A stretch of DNA of 31,570 bases from contig CAYSIJ010000001.1 in the NCBI GenBank assembly GCA_964431155.1, positions 30,130 to 61,699 of the forward strand, read 5' to 3'. Under the pieces are notes generated by a model that was given only the letters and a program-made list of their open reading frames with translations, was not told the DNA's origin and searched no databases. This document shows positions 1,591 to 27,968 of this stretch, piece by piece (positions within the stretch are counted from its first letter, which is position 1; each line of letters starts with the position of its first letter). Origin of the DNA: an uncultured Gammaproteobacteria bacterium. Its GTDB lineage: Bacteria; Patescibacteriota; Patescibacteriia; Patescibacteriales; UBA12465. Both the position numbers and the translations under genes were made by a program.

Positions 1591-1603
1591 AAAAGATTGA
1601 TAA

Positions 1604-1619
1604 ATTCAACATTTTGTGG
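1604..1619. promoter_or_regulatory. NrdR box 1
   Basis: attCaAcATtTtGtgg matches the NrdR-box consensus acaCwAtATaTwGtgt; 32 bp start-to-start from box 2, upstream of nrdR-nrdD. Confidence 0.8.
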
Positions 1620-1635
1620 GGTTTTCTTGCTCCTA

Positions 1636-1651
1636 CCACTAAATGTTGTGC
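1636..1651. promoter_or_regulatory. NrdR box 2
   Basis: ccaCtAaATgTtGtgc matches the NrdR-box consensus and sits just downstream of the predicted -10 element. Confidence 0.8.
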
Positions 1652-1659
1652 TTATTTGT

Positions 1660-1687
1660 ATTTTAGCAGAAATCCATATCAAGTAAA
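1660..1687 (-). promoter_or_regulatory. Putative sigma70 promoter of nrdR-nrdD
   Basis: Minus strand TTTACT-16 bp-TAAAAT, with an extended -10 (TGcTAAAAT). Confidence 0.55.
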
Positions 1688-1738
1688 AGAGGGTAAAATA
1701 AAGGGAAAAATTATTCTTTGACAAACGAGCGGAAAAAC

Positions 1739-1747
1739 TGTGGATAA
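1739..1747 (-). promoter_or_regulatory. DnaA box
   Basis: tgtggataa is the reverse complement of TTATCCACA, a perfect DnaA box, about 50 bp upstream of the nrd promoter. Confidence 0.6.
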
Positions 1748-1799
1748 GTCCAATTGCCTTCCGAAATAATCGCGCAAGAATCATACATTCATTATATAC

Positions 1800-1828
1800 A
1801 AAAATGAGGCCAAAATAGCCTCATTTTT
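1800..1828. terminator. Rho-independent terminator, just downstream of the displaced ftsZ tail copy
   Basis: aaaaatgaggc-caaaata-gcctcattttt perfect stem with A/T tracts on both sides. Confidence 0.8.
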
Positions 1829-1855
1829 TATGTCGATATCTTATTTTTTATTAAC

Positions 1856-1874
1856 TCATCCTCTTCCGAATAAA
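1856..1874. repeat. 19-bp direct repeat, copy A (displaced ftsZ 3' end, att-like)
   Basis: tcatcctcttccgaataaa, identical to 3437-3455. On the minus strand its context reads ...YPTFIRKRMS*, versus ftsZ ...IPAFIRKRMM*. Confidence 0.85.
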
Positions 1875-1940
1875 TGTCGGATAATGAGCTAGTCCTCTCA
1901 ATGAATCAACATTTGACTGAAATTCTTATCAATTTTCAAG

Positions 1941-2036
1941 TTAGATGCCAGTCGGACGATAAGAATGCTCGCGTGCATGGCCGGTTTTATATTGCTCGCC
2001 GACTTTCTGACTGAACTTTTTTACATTGATGCTCAT
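1941..2036 (-). pseudogene. N-terminal fragment resembling type ISP/IIG restriction-modification (N6 methyltransferase-fusion) enzymes
   Basis: Manual translation MSINVKKFSQKVGEQYKTGHAREHSYRPTGI*. Y-x-T-G-x-A-x-E-H-S-Y-R-P resembles the N-terminus of these enzymes as I recall it; the frame stops immediately afterwards. Confidence 0.5.
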
Positions 2037-2127
2037 ATAATATGATTATTTGCTATTTTAAAAAAATTTCAAACTAATCTCATACTTTTCCCGCCCCCAA
2101 CATCTCAATCTTCTTCATATCAAAATT

Positions 2128-2301
2128 TTATTCTTCCATCTTTTTCAAAATCTCCTCCACCTGCTCATTTGTAATGTTTCTACCAGAAAGCCGCAGCGAA
2201 GAGCCAGTGCTTTCAATCAGACACTTTTTCCTGAGCTCAGCCAGATAATCCTGGCTCATCTTTGCATTTGATGCATGAATTTTAATATTCTTATTTTTCA
2301 T
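2128..2301 (-). pseudogene. 57-aa ORF resembling the N-terminal helices of Fic-family proteins (truncated, no HPFxDGNGR motif)
   Basis: Manual translation MKNKNIKIHASNAKMSQDYLAELRKKCLIESTGSSLRLSGRNITNEQVEEILKKMEE*, compared with the recalled Fic pattern YLxELRKxAxIESIGSSTRIEG...TxEEVExLL. Starts 24 bp downstream of the wHTH-PRTase stop. Confidence 0.55.
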
Positions 2302-2324
2302 AAAGCATTATAAAGCTACATTTT

Positions 2325-3293
2325 TTAAACCTCGCTAATCACATCAAATCCCTTAAAGCTTCCTGTTATAGCTAGTCCGATAACTTTCTTAGCGATTCTT
2401 TTATCCTTGATTTTCTTGGCAATTTCATTCAATGTCGCACCAGAACCTACGGCATCGTCAACCAAGAGAATATTATTAAAATGTCCTGATTCTTCCAGGG
2501 CAAAAGTCTTCTGAGCGTTTTCGATTCTGTCATTAAGCTTGTTCAAGGTCTTTTGCGGGATTATAATATCTGTCTTGATTTTAGTAATTGTTATCTCTTT
2601 AACTGGCAGATTCAGCTTTTTTTTCAGCTCATTCATGAACTGCACTTCTCTTTTTACAGTCGGTTGTACAAATCCAACGCCGTTAATGTTAAATTTTTTT
2701 ATCATCTTTAGGATTGCCGGCCTGACATCATCAATCAATTCTTTCATCAGTCTCCTGCTCTGGCTTTGCTTGGCATATAATAGCATTTGACCAAGCTTCG
2801 TTTTGCCAAATCTCTCAATACTGTAAAAATCAAGATAATATACATCGTCTAGGTATAAATCTTTAAACGTACCTTTCATCTTTTGCATTCCGTCAATAAG
2901 ATCATCTTTCCTAAAACCGGAATATTTTTTCAAAGTAACCAGATATTCTTTAGCAGTTTTTTCAATCGGCAATTTCTGTTTTTCACACCAATAAACAAAC
3001 CCGGCAAATCCTTCCATCTTTTCCCCGCTCGGAGTAATGGTAAAATAATTTTTATCGATTATATTTTTAGTTTCGTTATCAACTTCATGACTAGTTTTTT
3101 CTGACTCCTTTTCTTTGAGGGTATAAAAAACTTTCGGCGGTCTTCCGGTCTTAATTATTTGTTTTCCGGACAGCATGTCTGGCAGATGTTTATATAAAGC
3201 TTGTCTGGAAATATCCAAATATTCAGCTATTTCATTAGCTGTTATTTGACCTTTTTCTTTAATTAGTTTAATTATTTTTTCCCGCGTATCCAT
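2325..3293 (-). CDS. N-terminal winged-HTH fused to a ComF-like phosphoribosyltransferase (PRTase) domain
   Basis: ITANEIAEYLDISRQALYKHL is an HTH. The C-terminus has ILLVDDAVGSGATLNEIAKKI (PRPP-binding loop) and a ComF-like PQKTL...RIENAQKTF. Confidence 0.8.
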   Translation of the reverse strand: MDTREKIIKLIKEKGQITANEIAEYLDISRQALYKHLPDMLSGKQIIKTGRPPKVFYTLKEKESEKTSHEVDNETKNIIDKNYFTITPSGEKMEGFAGFVYWCEKQKLPIEKTAKEYLVTLKKYSGFRKDDLIDGMQKMKGTFKDLYLDDVYYLDFYSIERFGKTKLGQMLLYAKQSQSRRLMKELIDDVRPAILKMIKKFNINGVGFVQPTVKREVQFMNELKKKLNLPVKEITITKIKTDIIIPQKTLNKLNDRIENAQKTFALEESGHFNNILLVDDAVGSGATLNEIAKKIKDKRIAKKVIGLAITGSFKGFDVISEV

Positions 3294-3319
3294 AATTTTT
3301 TAATTACTCTTATTTTAAT

Positions 3320-3361
3320 ATTTTATCAGGTTGACAGTTGACTGTCAACTGTCAACCTGAT
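3320..3361 (-). promoter_or_regulatory. Consensus promoter (TTGACA-17-TAAAAT) embedded in a perfect 37-bp palindrome; putative operator
   Basis: atcaggttgacagttgac-t-gtcaactgtcaacctgat (3325-3361). Minus-strand -35 at 3348-3343, -10 at 3325-3320 preceded by TG. Confidence 0.8.
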
Positions 3362-3376
3362 TACTACAATCATACA

Positions 3377-3402
3377 AAAACGAGGCATTTCAGCCCCGTT
3401 TT
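3377..3402 (-). terminator. Terminator of ftsA-ftsZ
   Basis: Minus-strand RNA aaaacggggc-ugaaau-gccucguuuu followed by U; the sequence resembles the 1800-1828 hairpin. Confidence 0.75.
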
Positions 3403-3431
3403 ACTATTTAAATACTATATTTTAACTAATA

Positions 3432-16062: not shown

Positions 16063-19000
16063 TTAAAAATTATCACCGGAAATTTGGGTTGATAAATGAT
16101 AGATGAGATTACCAAAAATTTTATACTCTTCGGGCTTTAAAGCGGCGCCATTGTTATGCCCCAATTGAATTGAAGCGACGCGATTGCAAACACTTGCCCA
16201 GGAATAAGTTGGCGAAGTCGGAATATGGAAAATATTTGTTAATAAGGAGCTAGCTGCCGAACAAGCCGAACCGCCGCATTGCGGGCCACAAGCACTATTA
16301 GCCGCTTTCAATAAATAAGATGGCTGCCAAGTATTGACCGTAATGTTACCAGTAGAAAGCGAGAATATCTCTCTGGAATTATTGGCGTGAACAATCATGG
16401 TGGCATTTACTGGAGAAAAAGTATTGGGAACTGTCCCCGAATAGTCGCTGAAGATTGTTCCATTTAGAGTTTTCCCGCCAAAAACCACCATCCCACCATT
16501 TTTAATAAAGTTTTCTACTAAAACACGGGCCAAGGGATCAGGATAACTCAAATTATTTCCCATTCCGAAAACAATGAGGTTGTATTTTTCCAAAATATTT
16601 CCTACTGGTAAATATGAAGTTGGACTGGAATTAAACACATTCATCGACACTGTATCAACAGAATAATCTACCTGACCGGAAGTATCGTTATCAACAATAG
16701 CGACATTGTCCCGGAAAGAAGAATCGGTTGGATTATTTCCCAGAGTATTTAAAATGGCCTTAACGGAAATTGTATTTGCGGCTCCAGAACTATTTCCAGC
16801 ATAAACCTGAAGAATTTTTAATTGGCGAGCAATTTTACAACGATTATTGCAGTATTCTCCGAGATAGGCCTGGACTGAATATGGGTCGCCGGGATCGCAT
16901 TGTTCTCCCTGATTATTCTGGACTATTCCATCACCGCAATATGAACAATCCGTATGACAATATTGATTTGTATTAAAACCAGGATCATAAACTTCGTGAT
17001 CATCAGTGGTAAAAGTGCTATCTATGGAACCACAAATTCCATCGCCGCAATAGCCGCCGGTCGCTCGGCAATAATTGTTAGAAGTAATTGGATTTGGAGT
17101 AGTAGAACCAACGCCGGTGGTGCAAGAATACTGGCGAGAAGCCGAACTATCAGCCACATTGAGAGCGACTCCGCCGACACCGTCACACTCTTCCATTCCG
17201 TCATTATAAATTCCCCCTCTTTTTTCTTGATTCGGCGCCTGTTTAATTCCATCGCCGCAATAGCTATTAATCTTCAAAACGAAACTCTTGGTGGCAGAAG
17301 CACCGTATTCATTGGTCGCAGTAATGGTGATAGGAAATTCGCTTTGAGGCGCTGGGGTTGACGTACCCGTTGAAGTGTTTCTAGTTTCATCATATTCATC
17401 AAACCTGCTAGCATAATTAGCCTCTTCTTCAGAAGTAACGACTGAGAGATTGCCGCTCGTGTTATTTGTATCAAGTGCGGGGTTAGTTCTCTGAAAACAG
17501 ACTTGTTGTTTGGTTGCTTGCTGGTTAGCGGCTGGTGCGCCCAGAGATTCGGCGAAAGCCTCTTTGATTTGCAAAACATTCTTCGCCCAAGTAACAACTC
17601 TAAGGACTGGAGATAAAAGAGCGGAAGGAAGAATATTATTTTCCTCCTGCATTTCTTGTTGTTGGCTTTCTAATTGTGATTCTGCTTTCAAGATAACACT
17701 TTTCAAAACATCATCATATTTCTTAAAAAATGATTCTTGAAGAGTGGCTGCATTTTCCTGGTCATTTTCTGAAACAAATTTTTGATAGGATTGAGTGCTA
17801 CAAGGAAAATTACGGTTGATTGTCGGTGGAGTAGGAGGAACACCTAAGGCATTGCCGCTAATTCTCACCGTTCCAACCTTGCTGGGGTCAGTAGAGGTTG
17901 ATAAATTAGTTCCCGTCAAACCGGCAACTGAATAAGTAATATCGTGATCTTTGCTGTTTAAAAGTTTCACTACACAATCATAGGCCCCGAACTTTCGGAC
18001 ATTTTCTTCACATTGATAATCAAAAACTGGCTTATCTTGTTTTAAATTAATTATAAAATCTTTCACCGAGGAACCGCCTGATGAGTTGTTGAGAGTAACC
18101 CGATAATTTAAGACTTTATTTGAACCAGCAGGAACATCTATTCTTCCACTATTTTGAAAAATAGTGACCTTGAATCTGCCCCTTTCAATCTTTTCAATTT
18201 TTGACTCCAAGCCACTTGGTAAAATGCCGGATGAACCACCACTAAGAGACGGCCGTGTATAGCTTAAAGTGTAATTTGGAGTGCCGGAATCGGAAACTGA
18301 ATCATCATTCAAATAGAATGAATAACTTAATCTATTATTGTTCAAAATAAAATCGGAGTTTTCTGCCTCAATTTTTGGCTTTGACTTGCTAATGGTAATT
18401 TTAAAAACTTTGGTTTGCTGTCCGAGCCGATTGTCAGAAACCTTGATGCTAATTTCTGCCGCGCCAACAGTCAAAGCCTTTCTTGAATAAACTTTTTTCT
18501 GATTTGGATTATTAGTGTCAACCAAAGTGACGCCGCCATCAAAAATGCTTGCGCCCGATATCACCGAAAGCTCCCAGGTCAATGGGTTGCCGCTTGGATT
18601 TGCTACCTTGATAAAACCGCTAAACTCCTGACCGAGCTCGCCTTGAAGATTCGCCGCTTCAAAAACTGGGTTAACCGGAGAGGTTGGGGCATCAATTTTC
18701 ACACTACAAGCCCCCTGACTCAAAAGCCTGTCAACAGTATTATAATTATTCACCGAATCAGCACTACCGTGAGTCTCCATTGAGGCACACAAACTATATT
18801 TGGCGCCACTATTTTCTGATTGATAAGCCATGACTAAACTATTATTCGGAAACTCTAGTGGATTAGTTTTAGCGGCAAAAGTGCTTAGGTTTTTATTCCA
18901 ACAGGTGACAGCATCAAAACCTGGGCATTGGCCTAGTTTGTTAACTGGATCAACTAATGATTTATCAAGACCTAATTGAGCACCAAAAGTACTCTGCCAG

Positions 19001-19719
19001 CTTGGCCAAGTAGAAATAGTTAGATGAGGGAGATAACTACCTGATGGTAAATCCGGAAAACGACCGTTTTTTTCTTGATAATTTTTTAAGGATTCTTTTA
19101 TCTCAGCCAAAACTGACAAACGTTTTACATCGCGGGTAATTTTGGCTTTTAAGCTATCGCAAAATCCCTTGCCAAGACAATCGCCATCAACCAAACAAGT
19201 GGAGGTTGCCGCCACCGTAATCGCACACTTTCCAGGAGCCGCTAAATTATTATTGAATTTCCAATTAGCAATAATCTGGCCGAGCGCATCGGTGGTGCCA
19301 GGCTTTGAATCTTGGTTATAAGAGATTAGATAAATGTTGGTGTGAATGATATTTCCTAAAACATTGGTGGCATTAACATAAACTGTCCGGCCATCGCGGA
19401 TTGCTTCATAGCCATCAACAATCAAAAATTGCGGCGATCCGGAAAAACCTTTTTCGCGATACCAGCGTTCAATTCCATAATGCTCATCGTTTGGCAGAAT
19501 TCTAATTGCCACCGCATCCAAACTTTCACCTGATACGGCCTGAAAATGATCACTAGCATCAACGGCGGAATCTATCTCAGCTGCAGTCTGGTCGGCAGCC
19601 TGGCAAGGATTATTTACCAAGAAGAAACAACTGACAACCAACAAAAATAACCCAGCTGACAACAAAAAAGGCTGGTAATTTTTACCTCTATTAAACCGCT
19701 GGAACATTATTGGTTTCAT
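16063..19719 (-). CDS. 1218-aa secreted Cys-rich surface protein: pilin-like helix, Ig-like repeats, CGDG (DUF4215/Myxococcus Cys-rich-like) repeats, C-terminal class-I-GATase-like fold
   Basis: Signal peptide ending CQA; RDVKRLSVLAEIKESLKNYQEKNGRFP; three YCGDGI repeats; LKILQVY...YNLIVFG...FIKNGGMVVFG. Confidence 0.7.
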   Translation of the reverse strand: MKPIMFQRFNRGKNYQPFLLSAGLFLLVVSCFFLVNNPCQAADQTAAEIDSAVDASDHFQAVSGESLDAVAIRILPNDEHYGIERWYREKGFSGSPQFLIVDGYEAIRDGRTVYVNATNVLGNIIHTNIYLISYNQDSKPGTTDALGQIIANWKFNNNLAAPGKCAITVAATSTCLVDGDCLGKGFCDSLKAKITRDVKRLSVLAEIKESLKNYQEKNGRFPDLPSGSYLPHLTISTWPSWQSTFGAQLGLDKSLVDPVNKLGQCPGFDAVTCWNKNLSTFAAKTNPLEFPNNSLVMAYQSENSGAKYSLCASMETHGSADSVNNYNTVDRLLSQGACSVKIDAPTSPVNPVFEAANLQGELGQEFSGFIKVANPSGNPLTWELSVISGASIFDGGVTLVDTNNPNQKKVYSRKALTVGAAEISIKVSDNRLGQQTKVFKITISKSKPKIEAENSDFILNNNRLSYSFYLNDDSVSDSGTPNYTLSYTRPSLSGGSSGILPSGLESKIEKIERGRFKVTIFQNSGRIDVPAGSNKVLNYRVTLNNSSGGSSVKDFIINLKQDKPVFDYQCEENVRKFGAYDCVVKLLNSKDHDITYSVAGLTGTNLSTSTDPSKVGTVRISGNALGVPPTPPTINRNFPCSTQSYQKFVSENDQENAATLQESFFKKYDDVLKSVILKAESQLESQQQEMQEENNILPSALLSPVLRVVTWAKNVLQIKEAFAESLGAPAANQQATKQQVCFQRTNPALDTNNTSGNLSVVTSEEEANYASRFDEYDETRNTSTGTSTPAPQSEFPITITATNEYGASATKSFVLKINSYCGDGIKQAPNQEKRGGIYNDGMEECDGVGGVALNVADSSASRQYSCTTGVGSTTPNPITSNNYCRATGGYCGDGICGSIDSTFTTDDHEVYDPGFNTNQYCHTDCSYCGDGIVQNNQGEQCDPGDPYSVQAYLGEYCNNRCKIARQLKILQVYAGNSSGAANTISVKAILNTLGNNPTDSSFRDNVAIVDNDTSGQVDYSVDTVSMNVFNSSPTSYLPVGNILEKYNLIVFGMGNNLSYPDPLARVLVENFIKNGGMVVFGGKTLNGTIFSDYSGTVPNTFSPVNATMIVHANNSREIFSLSTGNITVNTWQPSYLLKAANSACGPQCGGSACSAASSLLTNIFHIPTSPTYSWASVCNRVASIQLGHNNGAALKPEEYKIFGNLIYHLSTQISGDNF

Positions 19720-19760: not shown

Positions 19761-22700
19761 TTATTTATTACTGAAAAAATAATATTCTTTTAAAATATCC
19801 CAGATGCATAAACCGCCGGAACAATTGGCGTCCGAAGAACAAGACTGAGCATTGTTATTACTACAAACCTTACTTGGACTTTTTGGAATAGCACTCTCGG
19901 AAATTTCCGGCAAATCATCACTTGTACCTGGCTTCCCCGCATCGCGACAATAATAAAAATCGTAATTAAAAGGATTGTTCGCGAAATTATTTTTATCACG
20001 CCACGGTGCCCAAGTGCCATCGGATTTTATTCTTGGCCAAGGATTCGCGCAAATAAAGACAAACAGCTCAGAACTGGATTTTTCTCCATTACCGCCGAAA
20101 TATTGATTACCGGTGGACATTTCCACGGTGGAATAAAGCAAAGTCTTGCCATCGTTAATTTTGTCAGCCGCAGTCGCAATAATTTTATTAGCCATTAATG
20201 AAACAGTAGTTGTAGAAATTAAGGAAGGATTTTCTGATTTGAATACCCAGGTCCAATTATAGCCAGTAACAGGATTTAATAGTTGATCATCAATACTATA
20301 AGCATTGGCTTCAAAAACTTTGTCACGATCACGCCTGGAATCAAACGAGGCATTTCCAGGGGTGTCATCAGCTGAATCATTGGCGGCCGTGGAAAACAAG
20401 TATTGATTAGGGACTAAGGTTGTATAATCAATTTCACAAATATCAGCTCTGGTGGTAAAAGTACTGACAAAAGCCTTGTATAGGTTATTGTTTATTTTTG
20501 CTTTAATTGCTCCTTGGTAAAACCCGCTATCTTGAGGCTGGCTAGCATATTTTTTGATATTCTGATCTATAACTTCGCCTATCTCTTCCCTTCTGATATT
20601 TAAATCACCTAGCTCCATAGAAAAATCTTGGACGTCAAGTTCCAGGCTAGACTTTAACATTTTAGAGCGAATTTCTCTTATCTTTTTCTTTAATTCTTCT
20701 AGCTCTTCAATTTGTGTTCCTAAATCCTTCCAGTTTGCGCCATTGACAGCTTTGGCAATCATCAAACCTGTATTATTTCTCCGTTTTTCTGCTTCATCCA
20801 ACAGATCATTAGTTGCTAAGATTTCGTTAAAATTTTTATTGATTTCGGCATCAGAAACTTTTTTCTGATAATTTTTAATCTGATTCTCGTACTCTTTTAA
20901 GTCACTATGGAGAACCTGAAAATCTGCTGTTGAAAAACCGGAATCATCCACAACACTCATCCCAACACCATCGCCACTCAAAACACCGTCCGCCGGAGAA
21001 TTTTCCTGGTTATTTCCCCTGACAAAAATTAAATATTTTTGACCACTCTTGAGCACAGCTTTTGGCTTAATAAGCGCAACTGTGGTCGTGGCAAAGTTTT
21101 TCACCCGATCCACAGCTTCAACATTGATGGGGACTTGGCAATAAGTATGATTAGCGGTATTGTCAGCCAAGGCTTTGTCTTTCTTGAAAATATTAAAAAA
21201 TGAAATAATTATTTTTTCAACACCCTGATAGGCTTTGACAAAAATATTTTCTTTTAAATTATCGGCTGCCAAAGGGGTGCTAGTCGGACACTTGAAGCCG
21301 GCCACATGCTCTTCCAAAAGTTTTACATTATTACTATTAAGACTGGTGCCAATCATGATGCGATCAAAATTGATTTGAAGAGCAGCGTTTCGGCAAACTC
21401 CAGTGCTGTCAGCAGCCGGGGAAACGCCGCTGATTGTTGGCTTGGGATAGCAACAAGAATCCACACCACAACCACTTAGACCAACCCCGCCGGGATTACA
21501 TTCACCATCATTAGAGCAACCACAACAAAGACCGCGTGAAGCACCACTGCAGTCTCCTTTGTTGGAAAGGCAGGATAATTTTGAATTGATTGCTTTGCAA
21601 GCGGTATCCGTTTTTGGATTACAACAGCAAACCCCACATTCACCGCCTGCTGAAGGCGCTGCGGAAGTTATTGTTCCGCCAGTGGAAGTTAGGCAAGAAA
21701 GATTTGACGTGGCGCCAAAAACCCCGGAACAAATTGAAGTATCGCATGTATAATTATTAGTGGTTTTCCCGGCAGTGCCACAACTTAGACCCAGGCCAGT
21801 GTTGCCGCCCGATGGTTTACAATTAGCTTCGCAAGCTGTGATGGAAGAATAGGTGCCATTTCTTCCAGGAGTACTGGAAGCACATTTATTATTTTCTGTA
21901 ATTGCATTATTTGGATCAGAGCAATTGTAATAAGCGCAATATCCTGGATCACTAGGAATTAAATTTCCAACACCACCGCGACAGACTGGCCCACCAGTCG
22001 CCTTGGCATCCAAACAGCAAACGGAAGAATGCGCCATGCATTCATCAGTGTCCAAAGTAGCACAATCGACGCAAGCACCGGTCGGGAAAGCCCCAGAAGT
22101 CGCACAGAACTGACCATTGTGACCTGAACAGTTGCAGGCAGCATCTCTGGAGTCAGTGTCGGCTCCGGCCGCAAAGCAACCAGAACATTTGCCAAATCCC
22201 GAATTGTCAGTTGGATTGGTATCAGAACCGCAAGTTCCACCACAAGTTAATGGCGCACAGCAATCTTGGTTACCATTGCTAATTTGGCAACAACATTCGC
22301 AAGAAGGTGCTTCGTCAATAACACACTCCCCCGAGGAATTACAAGTCTCTCCGCCTTTACATTGCAAATCAATTTTACATTTTCCCTCTAAGCATTTTTC
22401 TGTATTCTCACACAATGAACAATTATTACTAGTTTTTAGATCTACAGTGGAGGCACCTTTAGCGCAAAGGCCGCCATTTATTTTTATCCAACCATTGATA
22501 CAAGTGGTGTTTGAGCTATAAACTAGACGTTGGCGATTTTCATATTCTGGTAAAACTTTACAGAAAGAGCCTATTTTTTCTGTGTCGCTACAAATTTTTT
22601 CTGGATTTTTAATGCAACTGCCGTTAACGACAGAATAACCACTCGGACAACAAGGTCCTTTTGGCGCCGCGACTACTGTTGAACCGGAAGAACATTTACC

Positions 22701-25349
22701 AGGCACATTTGGACAAGTGCTACTAGTTTGGCAGGAGCCAACTTCTTTGGAAACACCGAGGCAGCTATCAAAAGTGCTAGGTGGAGGAGTAGTGGGATTT
22801 GTGATATCTATTGTCCCGAGTTTAGTGCTAAAAGCCCATTCAAAAACTGAATTTTTAACATCACCCACACAATCAGCAAGATCGCTCACACACTGGCCTT
22901 TCAAAGAAGTGGTTACTGGACAACAAAATTTTCCCGACGAGCAATCGGAATTTTTTCCGCAAGCACCAACTTGAAAATTAACTGGGTTACTATCCTCTAA
23001 TCTTACTAACCCGGAAACCGCGGCGGCAGGAACAAGCACTTCTGCTTTATTAGTTTTATTGCTAATTGAAATTGTAGAAGCAGCAGCAATTGAATTAAAA
23101 TAAACCTTCACGGCAGAACCACTTGATCCAAAATTTTCTCCAAAAAGTGTTGTCGTGGAATTTGCCGGACCGCGGCTAGGATCAATTTTACAAATTCCTG
23201 GTTTCAATTTTTCATTAGAATCAAAATAAAAAGATAGGTTGTTTGAGGAAGAATGCATTTCCCAGGAATCAGTTTTGATCATTACATCGCTTTTTTGCGG
23301 ATTAATTCCGTCAGGAGCTTTAACAAGAATCTGCTTATCCGACCAGAGATCGGCCGCACATTCGCTTGGAAAAGTATAAACCGCTTCTTTACTACCGAAA
23401 AACACTTTGCCATTTCCACGGTTATCACCAAAATTACTGCCGCTGATTGTAACATATTGTCCTACTGGACCTCTATCGGGAGAAATCGCCGAAATATTTG
23501 GAGCCGCGGGAAGATCGTTCAGCTTTTCAAAAAATAAAAAATTACTTTTTGGTTTTCCATTGCTGACAAAAATACTATTATTACCAACTGCCAAAACAGG
23601 AACGGCGGCACTAGCCTTGGTGTCACTAGCAAATTTTCCCTGACCATTAAGATTTTTTTGATAATCACCAAAAAATACCGAACCATTGCCAAAGTTATTT
23701 CCAAAAAGAGAAATAACTTCGTTGGTCTGCGCAGCGCTTGGCGACAACCTGCAAAGACCAGGACGAGAAATCCCATTCTTTAAAAAATCTTTAATTTTTG
23801 GTCCATTGTCGTCATCTGTCGTTTCTATTTCATTGAACCGCGACCGGATTTCAATTTTGCCGTTTTGGACATCATCAGGAACGACGACAATAATTTGATT
23901 AGCACTGAAACTTGAACATTGGGAATATATTTCCGAGGCAGTTTTAACTGTTACTCCGCCGATAGTAATTGAGCGTCCAGCGGTTTCATCAACAATTTTC
24001 AGATCATCAATAAACAAGGAAGTCCCGTTGCCAGTCGGCCCACCAACCAAAACAAAACGCATTTTTGGGCTCCCAATTTTTGGCGAATTACCAAGTGAAA
24101 AAAATATTGTTCTTTGGTTGCTATATTGTCCTGGGATAATCTCAGTGATTTTTTTGTCATCAAAATAAATTTCTAAACGATTAGTTAGTTCCCCTTCAAA
24201 AGTAATTTGCCCACCGTACTGACGACCATCTTGAAAACCAACTTTTTCCAGATCATAAAAAACTTCGGCATTGGCATCAGTGCCATCAACATTCCCTGGT
24301 TTCTGCCAGAAAAGTAACGACATAGACTCTTTAATCGGCGTTTTTGCAAAAGAAATTTTAGCCGCATCGCCGGCTTTCAAATCGCCAAAATTGGGACTGC
24401 CAATGCTTCCGCCCTCAGGATAGCTATCAAATTTTTCCTCAAAAATTTCCTTACCTGATGGCTTATTAAAATTTTTACCAAGAATCGTTAAAAGATTTCC
24501 TGGCTTGCCATTTGGCGTAATGGTGTTACAAGTGGAACTTGGGCAGTCAGCATTTGTGTCACAAGGCCTGTTATAATTATTTTCACAAAAACCGCCCGCC
24601 GGGCTAACACTCAAAATAGTAATTGGCCCCTCACAAACACAAGAACCAGTATTACAGGTTAAACCATCAGCGCAATTATTTCCATTAACATCGCAGGAGC
24701 CGTCTTCTTTAAAACCGCAAGAATCACCCGATTGGCTTTTGTCTTCACATAAGCAATTATTATTACAAATCTTATCCGGTGAACCGCAAAGATTGTCGTT
24801 TGGTGTGCAAGAACCCAAATTAGAACCACCATTGCAGCTTATTGGGGTAGACGTTGAGTTTGTACAATCATAACCTGAACAAGTCGGATTACCACCGTCG
24901 CAGACAATATGCCCACCGCAGAAACAAGGGGTGCCGGCCACGCAAGCTCCTCCCGGATAAATGGAATTACCACCATTATTGCCATCGCCTAATAACCTAT
25001 TAATTACAAAATAAGCGATTCCCCAGGCGGATAAAATAATAATTAAACCAATTAAACCAGATCTTAGAATTTTTTTTGCTTTGGTGATTTGTTCTTCACT
25101 ACCATTACTCTTCATCCAAACAAACCCTCCCCAAAGAATAATACTAACGGCAATAATTCCCAAAAACATCAATGAGAGGTTGATAATTCGGACCGCCATA
25201 TCACGCGGGTCACTCGCTGATAAGTTTATGTCGGCTCCTACTTGGTCCACCCCAGTATCAACCGTGGTTGCAGCCAAAGCCAAACGAGCGCCAAAAAGCA
25301 CAGTAAAACAAAAAATCGCGCTTAATAAAATTTTACTAGATTTTTTCAT
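19761..25349 (-). CDS. 1862-aa surface protein: N-terminal TrbC/VirB2-like (T4SS-type) pilin, Cys-rich modules, IPT/TIG repeats, SbsA-like Ig domain
   Basis: MAVRIINLSLMFLGIIAVSIILWGGFVWMKSNGSEEQITKAKKILRSGLIGLIIILSAWGI (pilin hairpin); repeated (I/L)SPxxG..TLxGxNFG TIG starts; ISGVSPAADSTGVCRNAALQINFD; dozens of Cys. Confidence 0.8.
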   Translation of the reverse strand: MKKSSKILLSAIFCFTVLFGARLALAATTVDTGVDQVGADINLSASDPRDMAVRIINLSLMFLGIIAVSIILWGGFVWMKSNGSEEQITKAKKILRSGLIGLIIILSAWGIAYFVINRLLGDGNNGGNSIYPGGACVAGTPCFCGGHIVCDGGNPTCSGYDCTNSTSTPISCNGGSNLGSCTPNDNLCGSPDKICNNNCLCEDKSQSGDSCGFKEDGSCDVNGNNCADGLTCNTGSCVCEGPITILSVSPAGGFCENNYNRPCDTNADCPSSTCNTITPNGKPGNLLTILGKNFNKPSGKEIFEEKFDSYPEGGSIGSPNFGDLKAGDAAKISFAKTPIKESMSLLFWQKPGNVDGTDANAEVFYDLEKVGFQDGRQYGGQITFEGELTNRLEIYFDDKKITEIIPGQYSNQRTIFFSLGNSPKIGSPKMRFVLVGGPTGNGTSLFIDDLKIVDETAGRSITIGGVTVKTASEIYSQCSSFSANQIIVVVPDDVQNGKIEIRSRFNEIETTDDDNGPKIKDFLKNGISRPGLCRLSPSAAQTNEVISLFGNNFGNGSVFFGDYQKNLNGQGKFASDTKASAAVPVLAVGNNSIFVSNGKPKSNFLFFEKLNDLPAAPNISAISPDRGPVGQYVTISGSNFGDNRGNGKVFFGSKEAVYTFPSECAADLWSDKQILVKAPDGINPQKSDVMIKTDSWEMHSSSNNLSFYFDSNEKLKPGICKIDPSRGPANSTTTLFGENFGSSGSAVKVYFNSIAAASTISISNKTNKAEVLVPAAAVSGLVRLEDSNPVNFQVGACGKNSDCSSGKFCCPVTTSLKGQCVSDLADCVGDVKNSVFEWAFSTKLGTIDITNPTTPPPSTFDSCLGVSKEVGSCQTSSTCPNVPGKCSSGSTVVAAPKGPCCPSGYSVVNGSCIKNPEKICSDTEKIGSFCKVLPEYENRQRLVYSSNTTCINGWIKINGGLCAKGASTVDLKTSNNCSLCENTEKCLEGKCKIDLQCKGGETCNSSGECVIDEAPSCECCCQISNGNQDCCAPLTCGGTCGSDTNPTDNSGFGKCSGCFAAGADTDSRDAACNCSGHNGQFCATSGAFPTGACVDCATLDTDECMAHSSVCCLDAKATGGPVCRGGVGNLIPSDPGYCAYYNCSDPNNAITENNKCASSTPGRNGTYSSITACEANCKPSGGNTGLGLSCGTAGKTTNNYTCDTSICSGVFGATSNLSCLTSTGGTITSAAPSAGGECGVCCCNPKTDTACKAINSKLSCLSNKGDCSGASRGLCCGCSNDGECNPGGVGLSGCGVDSCCYPKPTISGVSPAADSTGVCRNAALQINFDRIMIGTSLNSNNVKLLEEHVAGFKCPTSTPLAADNLKENIFVKAYQGVEKIIISFFNIFKKDKALADNTANHTYCQVPINVEAVDRVKNFATTTVALIKPKAVLKSGQKYLIFVRGNNQENSPADGVLSGDGVGMSVVDDSGFSTADFQVLHSDLKEYENQIKNYQKKVSDAEINKNFNEILATNDLLDEAEKRRNNTGLMIAKAVNGANWKDLGTQIEELEELKKKIREIRSKMLKSSLELDVQDFSMELGDLNIRREEIGEVIDQNIKKYASQPQDSGFYQGAIKAKINNNLYKAFVSTFTTRADICEIDYTTLVPNQYLFSTAANDSADDTPGNASFDSRRDRDKVFEANAYSIDDQLLNPVTGYNWTWVFKSENPSLISTTTVSLMANKIIATAADKINDGKTLLYSTVEMSTGNQYFGGNGEKSSSELFVFICANPWPRIKSDGTWAPWRDKNNFANNPFNYDFYYCRDAGKPGTSDDLPEISESAIPKSPSKVCSNNNAQSCSSDANCSGGLCIWDILKEYYFFSNK

Positions 25350-25367: not shown

Positions 25368-27968
25368 TTATTTACAATTACCATCCGCATCCAAGCCCGT
25401 TGCATTGCTAACCGGAACATCAAAACAACAGGAAGGGCTAACCGCAGAAGCAGGGCAAGAATCACTGCCACTCGGTTTGAAACAATTTTGATAAATATCA
25501 CGAATACCCGATCCAGCCTGAGCATTAAAAGCGCTAGATTCGGAAAATACAGAATGATTAATTTTAATAGTCGTTTGGTCTAATACTCCATTATCGCCAG
25601 CGGACTTGTTAAACGAAGAAACCCAATAACCAGCCGGATTACCAAAACTGCGGATATTTAAAAACTTGTGCTCTACATCGCCTTTGCCATTGTTTATTAT
25701 TTTTGAACCAGTGACCAAGCTAGCATTCAACATTAACCGAGAAAATTCAATCGTAATCGGAACATTGAGATCGGCACCACTCACATTATTTTCCGGAGAA
25801 ATTGTCCTGATAATCGGGGCAGTGGTTTCCATTTGATCGCTAATGAAGAATGACCACTGGAAATTATCTTTTTTGTTTTTGTCGCCCACATTTTCATTAA
25901 AAATATCTACTGGCCCATCAGAAAAAGTATCGCGATTTCCATCAAATGAATTACTGGAAGCATCAAAAATTCCTTTCAAAGAAAGAACATTGGCGGCTGG
26001 ATAAAACTTTCCGGCAGAATTTGCGCAAGATTTGTGGGATAAGGCTGAGAGATTATTACAGTTGCTAAAAGGCGCCTTCGTTCCACAAGCCGTGTTATCG
26101 CTACAATTTTCTAAATCAGCGGCAATTAATTCAACTTTCAAATTAGAATTAGCGGGCAAGCAATAAATTTTTTCACCACAACCATTCACGCCACATTGAT
26201 TATCTGATAAAAATTCTAGAGTCTTATAATCGCTAGAAAGTGTGAAATTTCCCGTAACTGGCTGACCATCATTAATATTAATTACCCGGATTGTGCTGCT
26301 CACAAAATTTGATGGCCCAGCAATTGTGAGGGGATTTATTTCTTTGCTAAAATTGATTTGAATTGCTGAATTCATTGGCTGATCAGGCTTGCCACCACCA
26401 GGATTCAAGGTTTTGCCACCATCCGCTCCACCAGAAAACGGTGTTATTTTGAAAGTGCCTGAGCGAGCAGATGAAAGAGAAATATCATTCCCCTGAGCAC
26501 CAGGCTTGGCAATAATGGTTAGGACATTGCCGCTAATAGCGACGTCTTTGAATTCATTAAAAACAGCAGGGTTCTCCAAAAATGCTTTCACCTTGCTGAC
26601 AGTTTCTGCTAAAGTGCCTGCCTGGTTGATACTTAAATTTCGACCGCCAACAGTTAAAATATCGGCTGGATAAGGTTTATTTAATTTTATCTTCCAAGAA
26701 TTTCCAGCAACTACTTTATCTATTTTAAAGCTGAAAAAATTTGGAAAGCTGACCAGATATTCATTTCCTTGCTTCACGGGTTGCGCCGCACCACGCGATT
26801 TTCCGCCGGCAGAAATCACAAAAACATTTCCCGAATCAACACTCACTTCAAAAACATCTCCTGGGTCGTTGGAAATCTCTTGGTAGTTATTACTCATTAC
26901 GAAAGAGCTGGAATCGAGACTTGAGGAATTTCCTCCTGGCGTTGAGGTGAAGGAAGCTTCTTTTTCTGGGCCCATTGCTCTTACGATTTCAATTTTGGCA
27001 ATTGCTGAAGAGCCGACCCTCTGAGCGAAAGAATCCTGTTGATTATCAACGGGAGGAAAAACGCCTTGAGAAACAACTATTGGCGGCACCAAATCAATCA
27101 GGCCATTAACTGAAAAATTCCATTCCAGATAATTGGGCTGGCATTTACTAAAAATATTTTCTCCTCTTAGATTTTTGATTTGATTGGTGAAGCGGACCCC
27201 ATAAGGAACCGCTACATTGGCCTCGCCAAGATATTCCTGAGGAAGAATGACAATAGTTTTTTTGTCATAAGACAGGCCGACTGTTGCCTTGGTCAAATTG
27301 GTGTTGTTGGTGTTGCAACCGCTGGCGCCACAGGCATTGCCGGCTTCTTTTTTGAAAATTTGAATCGCTTCCGGGTTGAGTTTGTTGCAAGCCGTTGAAC
27401 AAGCACAAGCATTACCGCTATCGTTTTTGCAAATGGATTCTGGGGCAACCTCTTCCTTGAAGGTCACCATGATTGAGGAATTTCGCGGCACATTGGATTT
27501 TTCAGCACTTGGAAAAAAATTTTCCACCACGCAAGCACCAACGGCACCAAGGCCGACTTGATAATTCTGGCCGCCAGTCGTGTCTACGCCTGAACCAGAG
27601 CCAGAACCACTGCCAGTCAATCTTCTCAAAATAAAAGCAGCAATTCCCCAAGCGGACAAAATAATAATTAAACCAATCAAAGCATTTTTCAGAATTTTCT
27701 TTGCGGTCGCAATCCGGTCTTCATTGCCATTACTAGTCATCCACACAAAACCGCCATAGATAACGAGCGACACCGCAATAATCCCCAAAAACATCAGGGC
27801 AAAATTGATAATCTTCACGGCCATCACTATCGGACTCGTGTCGCTCAAGGCAATAGTAGCACCGACTTGGTCTACCCCCGTATCAACTGCCGCAAAAACA
27901 AAAACCGCTGGCAAGAAAAAAGCCATCCCGAATAAAAAACCGACTAGCAATTTAAAACTTTTTTTCAT
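25368..27968 (-). CDS. 866-aa surface protein: N-terminal TrbC/VirB2-like pilin plus three SbsA-like (Big_5) Ig domains
   Basis: Pilin hairpin paralogous to that of the 1862-aa gene; VPRNSSIMVTFKEEV, PMNSAIQINFSKEINP and ADLNVPITIEFSRLM Ig-domain starts. Confidence 0.8.
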   Translation of the reverse strand: MKKSFKLLVGFLFGMAFFLPAVFVFAAVDTGVDQVGATIALSDTSPIVMAVKIINFALMFLGIIAVSLVIYGGFVWMTSNGNEDRIATAKKILKNALIGLIIILSAWGIAAFILRRLTGSGSGSGSGVDTTGGQNYQVGLGAVGACVVENFFPSAEKSNVPRNSSIMVTFKEEVAPESICKNDSGNACACSTACNKLNPEAIQIFKKEAGNACGASGCNTNNTNLTKATVGLSYDKKTIVILPQEYLGEANVAVPYGVRFTNQIKNLRGENIFSKCQPNYLEWNFSVNGLIDLVPPIVVSQGVFPPVDNQQDSFAQRVGSSAIAKIEIVRAMGPEKEASFTSTPGGNSSSLDSSSFVMSNNYQEISNDPGDVFEVSVDSGNVFVISAGGKSRGAAQPVKQGNEYLVSFPNFFSFKIDKVVAGNSWKIKLNKPYPADILTVGGRNLSINQAGTLAETVSKVKAFLENPAVFNEFKDVAISGNVLTIIAKPGAQGNDISLSSARSGTFKITPFSGGADGGKTLNPGGGKPDQPMNSAIQINFSKEINPLTIAGPSNFVSSTIRVININDGQPVTGNFTLSSDYKTLEFLSDNQCGVNGCGEKIYCLPANSNLKVELIAADLENCSDNTACGTKAPFSNCNNLSALSHKSCANSAGKFYPAANVLSLKGIFDASSNSFDGNRDTFSDGPVDIFNENVGDKNKKDNFQWSFFISDQMETTAPIIRTISPENNVSGADLNVPITIEFSRLMLNASLVTGSKIINNGKGDVEHKFLNIRSFGNPAGYWVSSFNKSAGDNGVLDQTTIKINHSVFSESSAFNAQAGSGIRDIYQNCFKPSGSDSCPASAVSPSCCFDVPVSNATGLDADGNCK

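Follow-up and report, generated by a model that had tools for sequence, protein, structure and literature searches.

A mobile wHTH-phosphoribosyltransferase gene of Patescibacteria with a matched repeat operator on its own promoter: a possible autoregulated one-gene module

We analyzed a stretch of 31,570 nucleotides (nt) from an uncultured bacterium of the Patescibacteriota (contig CAYSIJ010000001.1, positions 30,130 to 61,699; this whole stretch is hereafter called the window), whose source genome comprises 0.75 Mb in 33 contigs and is 86% complete. The subject of the analysis was an open reading frame (ORF) of 322 codons with an ATG start on the minus strand (2325-3293), confirmed as a real coding sequence (CDS), which encodes a winged helix-turn-helix (wHTH) followed by a family-specific domain and a ComF-like phosphoribosyltransferase (PRTase) fold. 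What is new is a repeat operator on the promoter of this gene that is matched to the recognition helix of its protein, and a mobile gene with an exchangeable head. Our reading of the wHTH-PRTase gene as a one-gene module of a conflict-type or selfish kind, which is self-contained, under negative autoregulation, and horizontally mobile, has, as a whole, slightly less than an even chance of being right, and its parts differ in strength. The features that underlie the regulatory part are the following:

2325..3293 including the stop codon, minus strand: CDS of the wHTH / family-specific domain / ComF-like PRTase protein, 322 amino acids (aa)
3108..3293, minus strand: winged helix-turn-helix, residues 1-62, with three helices and a two-strand wing, G50-x-P-P53-K-V-F-Y57 (Pfam HTH_11 and structure model)
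3168..3206, minus strand: recognition helix, residues 30-42; residues 28-36 differ by operator class
3325..3361, no strand: perfect 18+1+18 nt palindrome of GTTGAC(A) heptamer repeats, predicted operator, about 32 nt upstream of the ATG
3320..3348, minus strand: sigma-70-like promoter TTGACA-17-TAAAAT, inside the palindrome, TG-extended, a match (11/12) to the consensus only

The TTGACA-17-TAAAAT site was the best promoter-like site of the region. For the family, 80 of at least 554 loci present in one-genome-per-species contigs were analyzed, and the upstream set comprised, for 79 homologs of species-representative genomes, the 110 nt before the gene. An exact inverted pair and three or more phased copies of the heptamer were present in 72/79 of these upstream regions vs. 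8/464 of those that precede other ORFs at these loci, and the remaining seven weak ones visibly held degenerate versions of the repeats. Among loci the heptamer occurred in several variants (GTTGAC, GTTTAC, GTTCCT, GTTCAT, GT[AG]TAC, GTTTAT, and GTGGAC), and within each locus every repeat copy had the same variant triplet. The variants went together with particular recognition helices: class GTTCCT was paired with the helix x-R-A-[IV]-R-K (15/15), GTTCAT with [EPQ]-R-A-[IV]-F (6/6), GTTGAC with x-Q-[AG]-[LIV]-[FY]-K (27/28), and GTTTAC with one of two helix types (22/25). Furthermore, operator and helix of the GTTCCT class changed together in 8/8 independent pairs on well-supported branches (p 0.008). 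Sequence-specific binding of DNA by the protein is very probable, and these patterns in the sequences make it highly likely that it represses its own gene. Its wHTH would recognize the heptamers, which overlap its own strong sigma-70-like promoter as two direct and one or two inverted repeats, and the bound protein would limit its own synthesis.

Some loci departed from this arrangement. In a divergent subfamily (L041 and L044, homologs of 39-41% identity), an upstream palindrome of the GGGGTGAGC type replaces the heptamer repeats, and L050 has direct AAAATTGAGTA repeats upstream; there the principle of repeats at the own promoter holds, whereas the architecture of the site differs. In many relatives (L074, L065, L064, and others), a -10-like box lies 5-8 nt before the ATG, or only 3-4 nt separate the ATG from the end of the operator upstream of it, which leaves no space for a Shine-Dalgarno sequence, so that these mRNAs may be leaderless.

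In the source genome, a search for the exact 14-mer with up to two mismatches found the operator nowhere besides the own promoter. The tandem-heptamer pattern gave five matches, two of them at the own promoter, vs. a mean of 3.4 in shuffled sequence, while the 9-mer half-site gave 145 matches vs. 151-168 in shuffles, i.e. no excess, and the two inverted 9-mer pairs that occurred outside the promoter both lay inside coding regions. The pattern scan also took in five other carriers. In four of them (G205, G356, G217, and G259) the tandem pattern was present at the promoter of the homolog and was elsewhere no more frequent than the reversed-pattern control; the fifth, G288, has a different operator type. 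Operator boxes at several target operons, as expected of a PurR-type regulator, were thus found neither in the source genome nor in the four other carriers. With an operator at its own promoter only, the circuit appears to regulate itself alone and to have no 'cargo', and since there is no second site of this kind in the genome, the output of the circuit has to be the protein itself. The original prediction, made from the letters of the window, had been an uncharacterized one-component regulator gating defense cargo, or else a conflict effector, which is taken up below. The DNA-binding half of the first option is upheld by the frequency of the operator and by the way the operator tracks the helix, whereas the gating half is not supported, the operator being restricted to the own promoter. 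The defense cargo was not found either, as the neighbors in the window are of a housekeeping kind (nrdD, nrdR, ftsZ, ftsA, prepilin peptidase, and SecDF) and no partner recurred among 136 neighbors of homologs.

Evidence for horizontal mobility came from comparison with locus L055 of a related genome, which shares the following block with the window:

2325..3385, minus strand: block shared with L055, the exchanged unit of promoter/operator and CDS, with 92.6% nucleotide identity and flanks at 66-70%

The block extends from 92 nt upstream of the ATG through the stop codon, and the encoded proteins are 95% identical, vs. DNA identities of 70% for ftsZ and 66-69% for nrdR/nrdD. At four-fold degenerate sites the identity was 96/122 (0.79) in the cassette, 38/131 (0.29) in ftsZ, and 13/34 (0.38) in nrdR, a contrast which indicates that the cassette was exchanged long after its flanks had diverged. 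In seven further pairs, both flanks were about 50% identical. The promoter and the first 130 nt of the gene had 55-62% identity, and from about nt 130 onward the value rose to 65-95% (85-95% from nt 133 in pairs such as L076/L126), only to fall back to about 50% directly past the stop codon. These profiles indicate that the transferred unit is the gene itself, and that the promoter/operator together with helices 1-3 forms a separately exchangeable head, with a breakpoint just before the wing G-x-P-P-K-V-F-Y. In a quick IQ-TREE phylogeny from which the HTH was left out (80 rows, 262 columns), the operator class changed at least 30 times, which is near the values for shuffled labels (minimum 35, mean 42) and suggests that head and body are almost uncoupled. 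Judging from these alignments, horizontal mobility and head exchange are likely too, with a confidence only a little below that for autorepression. No conserved end motif was found past the stop codon. We also considered adjacency to tRNA genes as a sign of integration. A tRNA gene lay within 150 nt of the cassette in 4/80 loci (L072:5851-5923, L085:634-706, L130:5782-5856, and L131:6975-7051; Glu, Glu, Glu, and His, respectively), and the idea was dropped as these were too few.

The distribution of the family was patchy. At E<=0.001, 3,836 proteins were found in a collection clustered at 90% identity, the best 120 matches being 297-339 aa long and 57-96% identical; clustering at 50% identity gave at least 749 clusters at E<=0.001 and 221 at E<=1e-30. 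The relatives are labeled Parcubacteria, Moranbacteria, Falkowbacteria, and other Patescibacteria. Among sampled genomes of the phylum, the gene was present in 24/401 (about 6%), in 12/338 of high quality, and in 21/320 genera, with 11/23 in one family; one of the 24 carriers, G233, counts by no more than a 46-residue match at the loop. Interrupted copies occurred in 3/23 carriers (G304, G201, and G342). Two genomes, G146 and G289, each hold two full copies, and the operator types differ between the copies in both. The genes flanking the cassette in the window were beside homologs in 0/20 loci, and among 373 neighbors of 79 further loci the largest cluster, of glycosyltransferases, was present in six loci; FtsZ adjoins the gene in the four closest relatives only. 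Together with the separate canonical ComF gene of the source genome (see below), these counts show that the gene does not belong to the core competence genes of fixed synteny, the case that would have refuted the original prediction. The 136 immediate neighbors included, by Pfam, Fic (4), GT1 (3), FtsZ (3), and AbiEii, RhuM, and an IS200-type transposase (2 each), and by PADLOC, SoFic-like (4) and AbiEii (2) proteins. In the first ten loci, AbiEii, Cas1 with Cas4, and a weak Fic match stood amid UDG, RNase J, DNA ligase, Sua5, and others.

The protein was next resolved into its parts by profile searches and by an AlphaFold2 model (predicted local distance difference test [pLDDT] 94.9; predicted template modeling score [pTM] 0.86), built on an alignment of 84 family members that also served for the conservation analysis. 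Three parts are visible in the model, of which the two not listed above are given here together with the loop that would bind phosphoribosyl pyrophosphate (PRPP):

2910..3098, minus strand: family-specific middle domain, about residues 66-128, with conserved G-F-x-Y-W-C and K-T-A-x-E-Y stretches
2355..2906, minus strand: ComF/PsyrT-type PRTase fold, about residues 130-313 (structure match, hhalign, and PsyrT profile)
2433..2471, minus strand: PRPP (ribose-5-phosphate) loop I275-T287, containing D279 D280 and G-S-G-A-T

Pfam HTH_11 matched residues 4-37 (E 2.9e-8; 33.9 bits, above the cut-off of 25 bits), and the modeled wHTH consists of helices 3-14, 19-26, and 30-42 and strands 46-51 and 54-59, with MarR/ArsR-type heads as structural matches (Z about 11 over 60 residues). 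Pfam Pribosyltran matched residues 217-305 (E 2.9e-5) with 23.9 bits, slightly below its 26.3-bit cut-off. The PRPP loop has the sequence I275-L-L-V-D279-D280-A-V-G-S-G-A-T287, in which D279 never varies and the conservation of D280, S284, and G285 is at least 90%, so that the two acidic residues and the small-residue turn typical of type I PRTases are present and conserved. The model confirmed both the wHTH and the ComF-like fold, and with the single cysteine, the HTH_11 match, and the conserved loop it bears out the original prediction of an N-terminal HTH in place of the zinc ribbon of ComF, followed by an intact VDD..GSGAT loop. The middle domain is a small alpha/beta domain of about 60-80 residues in the model. 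A PADLOC scan of residues 66-150 gave no match, the ESM Atlas returned clusters of its own family only, and when the domain was folded alone (pLDDT 84.9) the best Z was 3.7, with 0/48,161 solved chains at Z>=5; this lack of a solved relative is no proof of a new fold. Among length variants of the family, the wHTH was kept in 9/10 scanned, and a search for longer, fused relatives, which is weak evidence, found none. A prediction with two copies scored 0.37 for the homodimer, with the mark at 0.42, and was used neither for nor against binding.

The closest relative of the PRTase part is ComF. The profile of the family aligned with that of 40 ComF sequences from Patescibacteria with 98.5% probability (hhalign; E 2.4e-15, 157 columns), family positions 149-315 corresponding to ComF 65-235, i.e. 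to the entire ComF body behind the zinc ribbon. The top solved structural match of the model was Helicobacter pylori ComFC (PDB 7p0h; Z 13.3 over 161 residues, root mean square deviation 3.1), which was also top in a search independent of Foldseek. The invariant or near-invariant residues of the family (K175, P210, R215, Q247, R256, N259, D279, D280, S284, and G285) align on the invariant K, P, R, Q, R, N, DD, and G-x-T of ComF, and both proteins have in common a PRTase-fold body with a hood and these signature residues. Unlike ComF, however, the wHTH-PRTase protein has no zinc ribbon: its only cysteine, C103, makes a four-cysteine ribbon impossible, and the zinc-ribbon family PF18912 gave no match in it. 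RGFNQ, invariant in the 40 ComF sequences, is also absent from the family, being a gap in the alignment with only Q218 kept, and TIGR00201 reached 28.1 bits vs. a cut-off of 233.55, over residues 247-305 only. Moreover, the wHTH and the unmatched domain of 60-80 residues are extra, and ComF is near-universal whereas the wHTH-PRTase gene is patchy and mobile. A canonical ComF with a double zinc ribbon (PF18912) and PF00156 is encoded separately in the source genome (C23:7231-7821). According to PMC9005727, ComFC binds PRPP, nucleoside monophosphates (NMPs), and nucleoside diphosphates (NDPs), its physiological ligand is unknown and no catalysis is known for it, while the zinc finger of the H. 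pylori protein is required for membrane association and uptake. The DprA gene of the source genome sits on a different contig from the wHTH-PRTase gene. Its match is split (G000:C19:6952-7568; profile positions 2-162 and 172-210 in separate frames), which may reflect a frameshift or an assembly error.

Apart from ComF, the PRTase part resembles effectors of several defense systems. The best match in a defense library was PADLOC PsyrT (PDLC03928), with 54.3 bits and E 1.8e-15 over residues 159-311. When the whole protein was used, PsyrT matched residues 4-311 against profile positions 367-683 (E 1.1e-17), as if the protein were the C-terminal half of PsyrT/RqlH; this idea was rejected, as in separate scans of the three parts only the PRTase part matched, the wHTH alone being marginal (11.7 bits, E 0.014) and the middle domain giving nothing. 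RqlH/PsyrT is described in PMC4670107 and PMC3378886 as a helicase of RecQ-like type bearing a C-terminal ComF-like PRTase domain that is genotoxic, requires the aspartate of the PRPP loop, and is countered by a DprA-like protein. This C-terminal domain is common to PsyrTA/RqlHI and the present protein, which, in contrast, has neither the RecQ-like helicase nor the tetracysteine domain, and adjoins ftsZ and a 57-aa ORF instead of a DprA-like PsyrA/RqlI gene; DNA_processg_A was not among the 25 commonest families of the 136 neighbors of homologs. ShosT (PDB 8zvc/8zvd) was the next structural match after ComFC (Z 11.3 over 162-171 residues), and its PADLOC profile matched the PRTase part weakly (E 7.9e-4). 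The non-canonical PRTase fold is common to both, whereas the N-terminal pyrophosphatase-like domain of ShosT and its DprA-like partner ShosA are missing here; the toxicity of ShosT depends on PRPP binding, as stated in PMC12961424.

The retron III-A effectors, which are PRTase-like with a winged helix that is C-terminal or separately encoded, and of which Retron-Eco11 depletes PRPP (PMC7736814 and PMC12746101), also join a PRTase-like fold to a winged helix that binds DNA. PADLOC PRTase_III-A matched the PRTase part (E 1.2e-8), and the retron-effector family PRTase-CE (PF24390) gave a weak 20.2 bits, short of its 27-bit cut-off. Here, in contrast, the order is reversed, the wHTH being N-terminal, and no reverse transcriptase or noncoding RNA adjoins the gene. 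The retron-specific Gx14PNNxP motif, in the form given in PMC12746101, was not seen in the wHTH-PRTase sequence, and most carriers are without a detected PRPP synthetase, unlike what PRPP depletion by Eco11 would call for. That no reverse transcriptase is present here, as the original prediction had it, holds for the whole window, the nearest RVT_1 gene being about 14.7 kb from the wHTH-PRTase gene and outside the window. The source genome has three RVT_1 genes (G000:C1:17130-17759, C1:70053-70661, and C20:9620-10108; ORFs of 302-404 aa). A separate ESM Atlas cluster of proteins of about 360 aa with HTH_40, RQC, and Pribosyltran, mostly from Chloroflexota, resembles a helicase-less RqlH C-terminus (TM 0.49), and it would be another stand-alone family of winged helix and PRTase. 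A wHTH-PRTase family was not found in the open full-text literature (subscription journals and supplementary files were outside the scope), where only retron and polyvalent-protein papers surfaced.

The supply of PRPP bears on all of these comparisons. A PRPP synthetase (Prs, TIGR01251) was not found in the source genome, which is 86% complete, whereas the same search was positive in 14/14 control genomes, and the only PRT-fold genes there were ComF and the wHTH-PRTase gene, with no salvage PRTase. Prs was found in 9/22 other carriers and in 4/11 of those at least 90% complete; in the phylum sample 113/401 genomes were above the Prs cut-off, a tally that includes the unpublished genome G154. 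As many carriers are apparently unable to make PRPP, PRPP depletion, base salvage, and PurR-like sensing of PRPP are all weakened as functions, and NMPs, deoxynucleoside monophosphates (dNMPs), or nucleic-acid ends are plausible ligands. The carrier G205 has two Prs-like genes (C2:411847-412752 and C2:542034-542996), of which one contains TAA twice in frame, and only about 3.4 kb separate the other from the wHTH-PRTase gene of this carrier.

We envisage the following mode of action. The PRTase fold keeps the ribose-5-phosphate loop as well as K175, R215, Q247, R256, N259, D279, and D280, and it probably binds a phosphoribosyl ligand, which might be an NMP/dNMP or PRPP, as with the solved ComFC. 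This ligand would relieve the repression, or be the substrate of an effector, or both; we regard control by a ligand through the ComF-type domain as evenly balanced between true and false. The patchy occurrence, the transfer from promoter to stop codon, the lack of a partner gene, and the head exchange led us to read the gene as a conflict-type or selfish accessory element, a role that we assign only tentatively and in favor of which the kinship of the PRTase part with the PsyrT, retron III-A, and ShosT effectors may count. The closest analogy would be a fused repressor-effector, resembling a toxin-antitoxin pair in one chain, and neither a housekeeping regulator nor a competence protein. Going one step further, it is conceivable, though doubtful, that the family is an undescribed one-gene conflict or selfish class of Patescibacteria, i.e. 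a fused repressor-effector with a swappable specificity head that diversifies like a phage immunity region. In that case the ComF/PsyrT-like domain would act on nucleotides or DNA once repression is lifted, and it could serve for defense, for keeping out incoming DNA, or for addiction, in bacteria whose way of life depends on DNA uptake.

Several observations weigh against the reading as a conflict-type module: (i) autoregulation is common among many harmless regulators, and the role proposed for this one comes from comparison of sequences; (ii) high conservation and near-constant length fit an ordinary enzyme or sensor as well, and an isolated autoregulatory loop can drift, so that head diversity could be partly neutral; (iii) neighbors are mostly housekeeping genes, defense and mobile families being a minority of the 136 in tallies that have no background rate, and no recurring partner, antitoxin, or DprA-like gene was seen among the 136 neighbors scanned; (iv) tblastn found no homolog in 50,697 phage records or 72,556 plasmids, and of 81 pattern stretches in IMG/VR contigs none was confirmed as a homolog; and (v) Prs was not found in 13/22 other carriers, seven of them at least 90% complete, which makes a PRPP-consuming toxin of the retron-Eco11/ShosT kind unlikely here. 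As to the operator code itself, the helix motifs were defined post hoc, after the operator classes were known, and since operator and helix lie within about 150 nt and are transferred together, their association is partly physical linkage. However, linkage is unable to explain the concerted identity of the three to four repeats within each operator or their fixed position on the promoter/5' end.

An unlikely alternative is that the protein is purely a nucleotide-sensing one-component regulator of the PurR/PyrR kind, with the PRTase fold as the sensor of an NMP, PRPP, or guanosine tetra-/pentaphosphate ((p)ppGpp) and with other targets reached through degenerate sites. The original prediction had pointed to Bacillus subtilis PurR, and the likeness of architecture is real: PurR too has an N-terminal wHTH and a C-terminal PRT fold, with ligand-modulated nucleic-acid binding, PyrR chains are among the Foldseek matches (E about 2e-4), and the many carriers without Prs would suit a non-catalytic NMP sensor. 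PMC9005727 names PurR and PyrR as PRT domains that were co-opted, and the binding of PRPP, NMPs, and NDPs by the PRT domain of ComFC without known catalysis, described there, points the same way. The likeness does not extend to a regulon, however, as no second operator was found in the source genome and four carriers and there is no conserved neighbor, and a regulator without targets has no output. Unlike PurR/PyrR, the domain is of the ComF type and not of the purine-salvage type, and the gene is horizontally mobile with head swapping, which is unexpected for a metabolic regulator. No PurR model was among the NCBIfam matches at E<=1, and no PurR chain was among the structure-match rows listed, which does not exclude unlisted families.

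The kinship with ComFC could also be taken at face value, the protein being an accessory ComFC paralog for DNA uptake or handling, or for nucleotide scavenging, in which a nucleotide-responsive self-repressor head replaces the zinc ribbon. Patescibacteria rely on scavenged nucleotides, the source genome has DprA and ComF and thus the machinery, and ComFC is the best relative by structure and by profile, with all signature residues but RGFNQ kept. We nevertheless give this paralog quite a low probability: it lacks RGFNQ and the zinc finger that H. pylori needs (PMC9005727), the gene is confined to about 6% of genomes and was never beside competence genes in the neighbor tallies, and sequence-specific binding to the own promoter is foreign to ComFC. 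Improbable, finally, is a trigger enzyme in the manner of BirA or NadR, i.e. a true phosphoribosyltransferase, for base salvage or for a special nucleotide, with a promoter controlled by its own substrate or product. A head of the HTH_11 family is typical of BirA-type enzyme-repressors, the residues of the PRPP loop and the flexible loop are intact, and a strong promoter that is tightly self-repressed agrees with homeostatic control; yet the canonical motif of the pyrophosphate loop of ComF is absent, Prs was found neither in the source genome nor in the 13 other carriers mentioned above, and no catalysis is known for ComF-type domains besides the toxic ShosT and retron effectors, as far as PMC12961424, PMC12746101, and PMC9005727 go.

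The setting of the gene in the window includes two further features:

3372..3407, minus strand: terminator-like hairpin with T-run behind ftsZ, recognized by reading the sequence and absent from a stricter terminator scan
2128..2301, minus strand: 57-aa ORF immediately downstream of the cassette, its companion in some relatives; a functional link is only conjectural

Read along the gene strand, ftsA and ftsZ come first, followed by the hairpin, the wHTH-PRTase gene, the 57-codon ORF, a stretch of about 540 nt that has no convincing gene, nrdR, and nrdD; further upstream, beyond ftsA/ftsZ, lie genes for a prepilin peptidase, a Wzy-like membrane protein, SecDF, and large surface proteins. Since ftsZ has its own hairpin and T-run, the wHTH-PRTase gene looks like a separate transcription unit. 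An Rfam scan of the window gave no match. The 57-aa ORF had no family match in the libraries, and BLASTP showed no similarity between it and the L040 Fic protein. It has a 56-codon homolog, 68% identical, at L055:5682-5852, which begins 1 nt past the stop codon of a SoFic-like Fic gene, upstream of the cassette; as there is no Fic gene in the window, the 57-codon ORF may be an orphaned Fic partner. The interval between ftsZ and nrdR differs between the two related genomes (window 1591-3431 vs. L055:4406-10201): in L055 it holds Fic with the small ORF, the cassette, and downstream a 977-aa peptidase of the M16/PreP type, and in the window the cassette, the small ORF, the stretch of about 540 nt, and nothing more.

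Contigs from three metatranscriptome runs of one study and from one DNA run of another covered window 2114-3390 at about 95% identity, and one contig from an RNA run extends upstream of the predicted promoter, though such contigs reveal neither transcription nor its start site or level. The cassette and the small ORF thus occur together on contigs from other sequencing runs as well. Elsewhere in the window, 19761-25349 and 25368-27968 (minus strand) encode two very large proteins, of 1862 aa and 866 aa, in which a T4SS_pilin-like segment at the N-terminus is combined with TIG/Big_5 domains; near them are an unannotated 1218-aa ORF (16063-19719) and two TSP3-repeat proteins, by look a surface or pilus-like cluster.

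ComF-type PRTase folds are needed for transformation and are toxic in PsyrT, ShosT, and retron III-A, and their ligand and chemistry are poorly understood. The family described here shows such a domain in its simplest context, with one gene, one promoter, and one operator, and its matched variants of operator and recognition helix offer a ready-made read-out as well as a small natural code for recognition of DNA by a wHTH. The gene-sized transfers and the breakpoint before the wing illustrate the modular evolution of a regulator in genomes of less than 1 Mb. Should the module prove to be a true defense or addiction element, it would be a single-gene addition to the very sparse known immune repertoire of the Patescibacteria.

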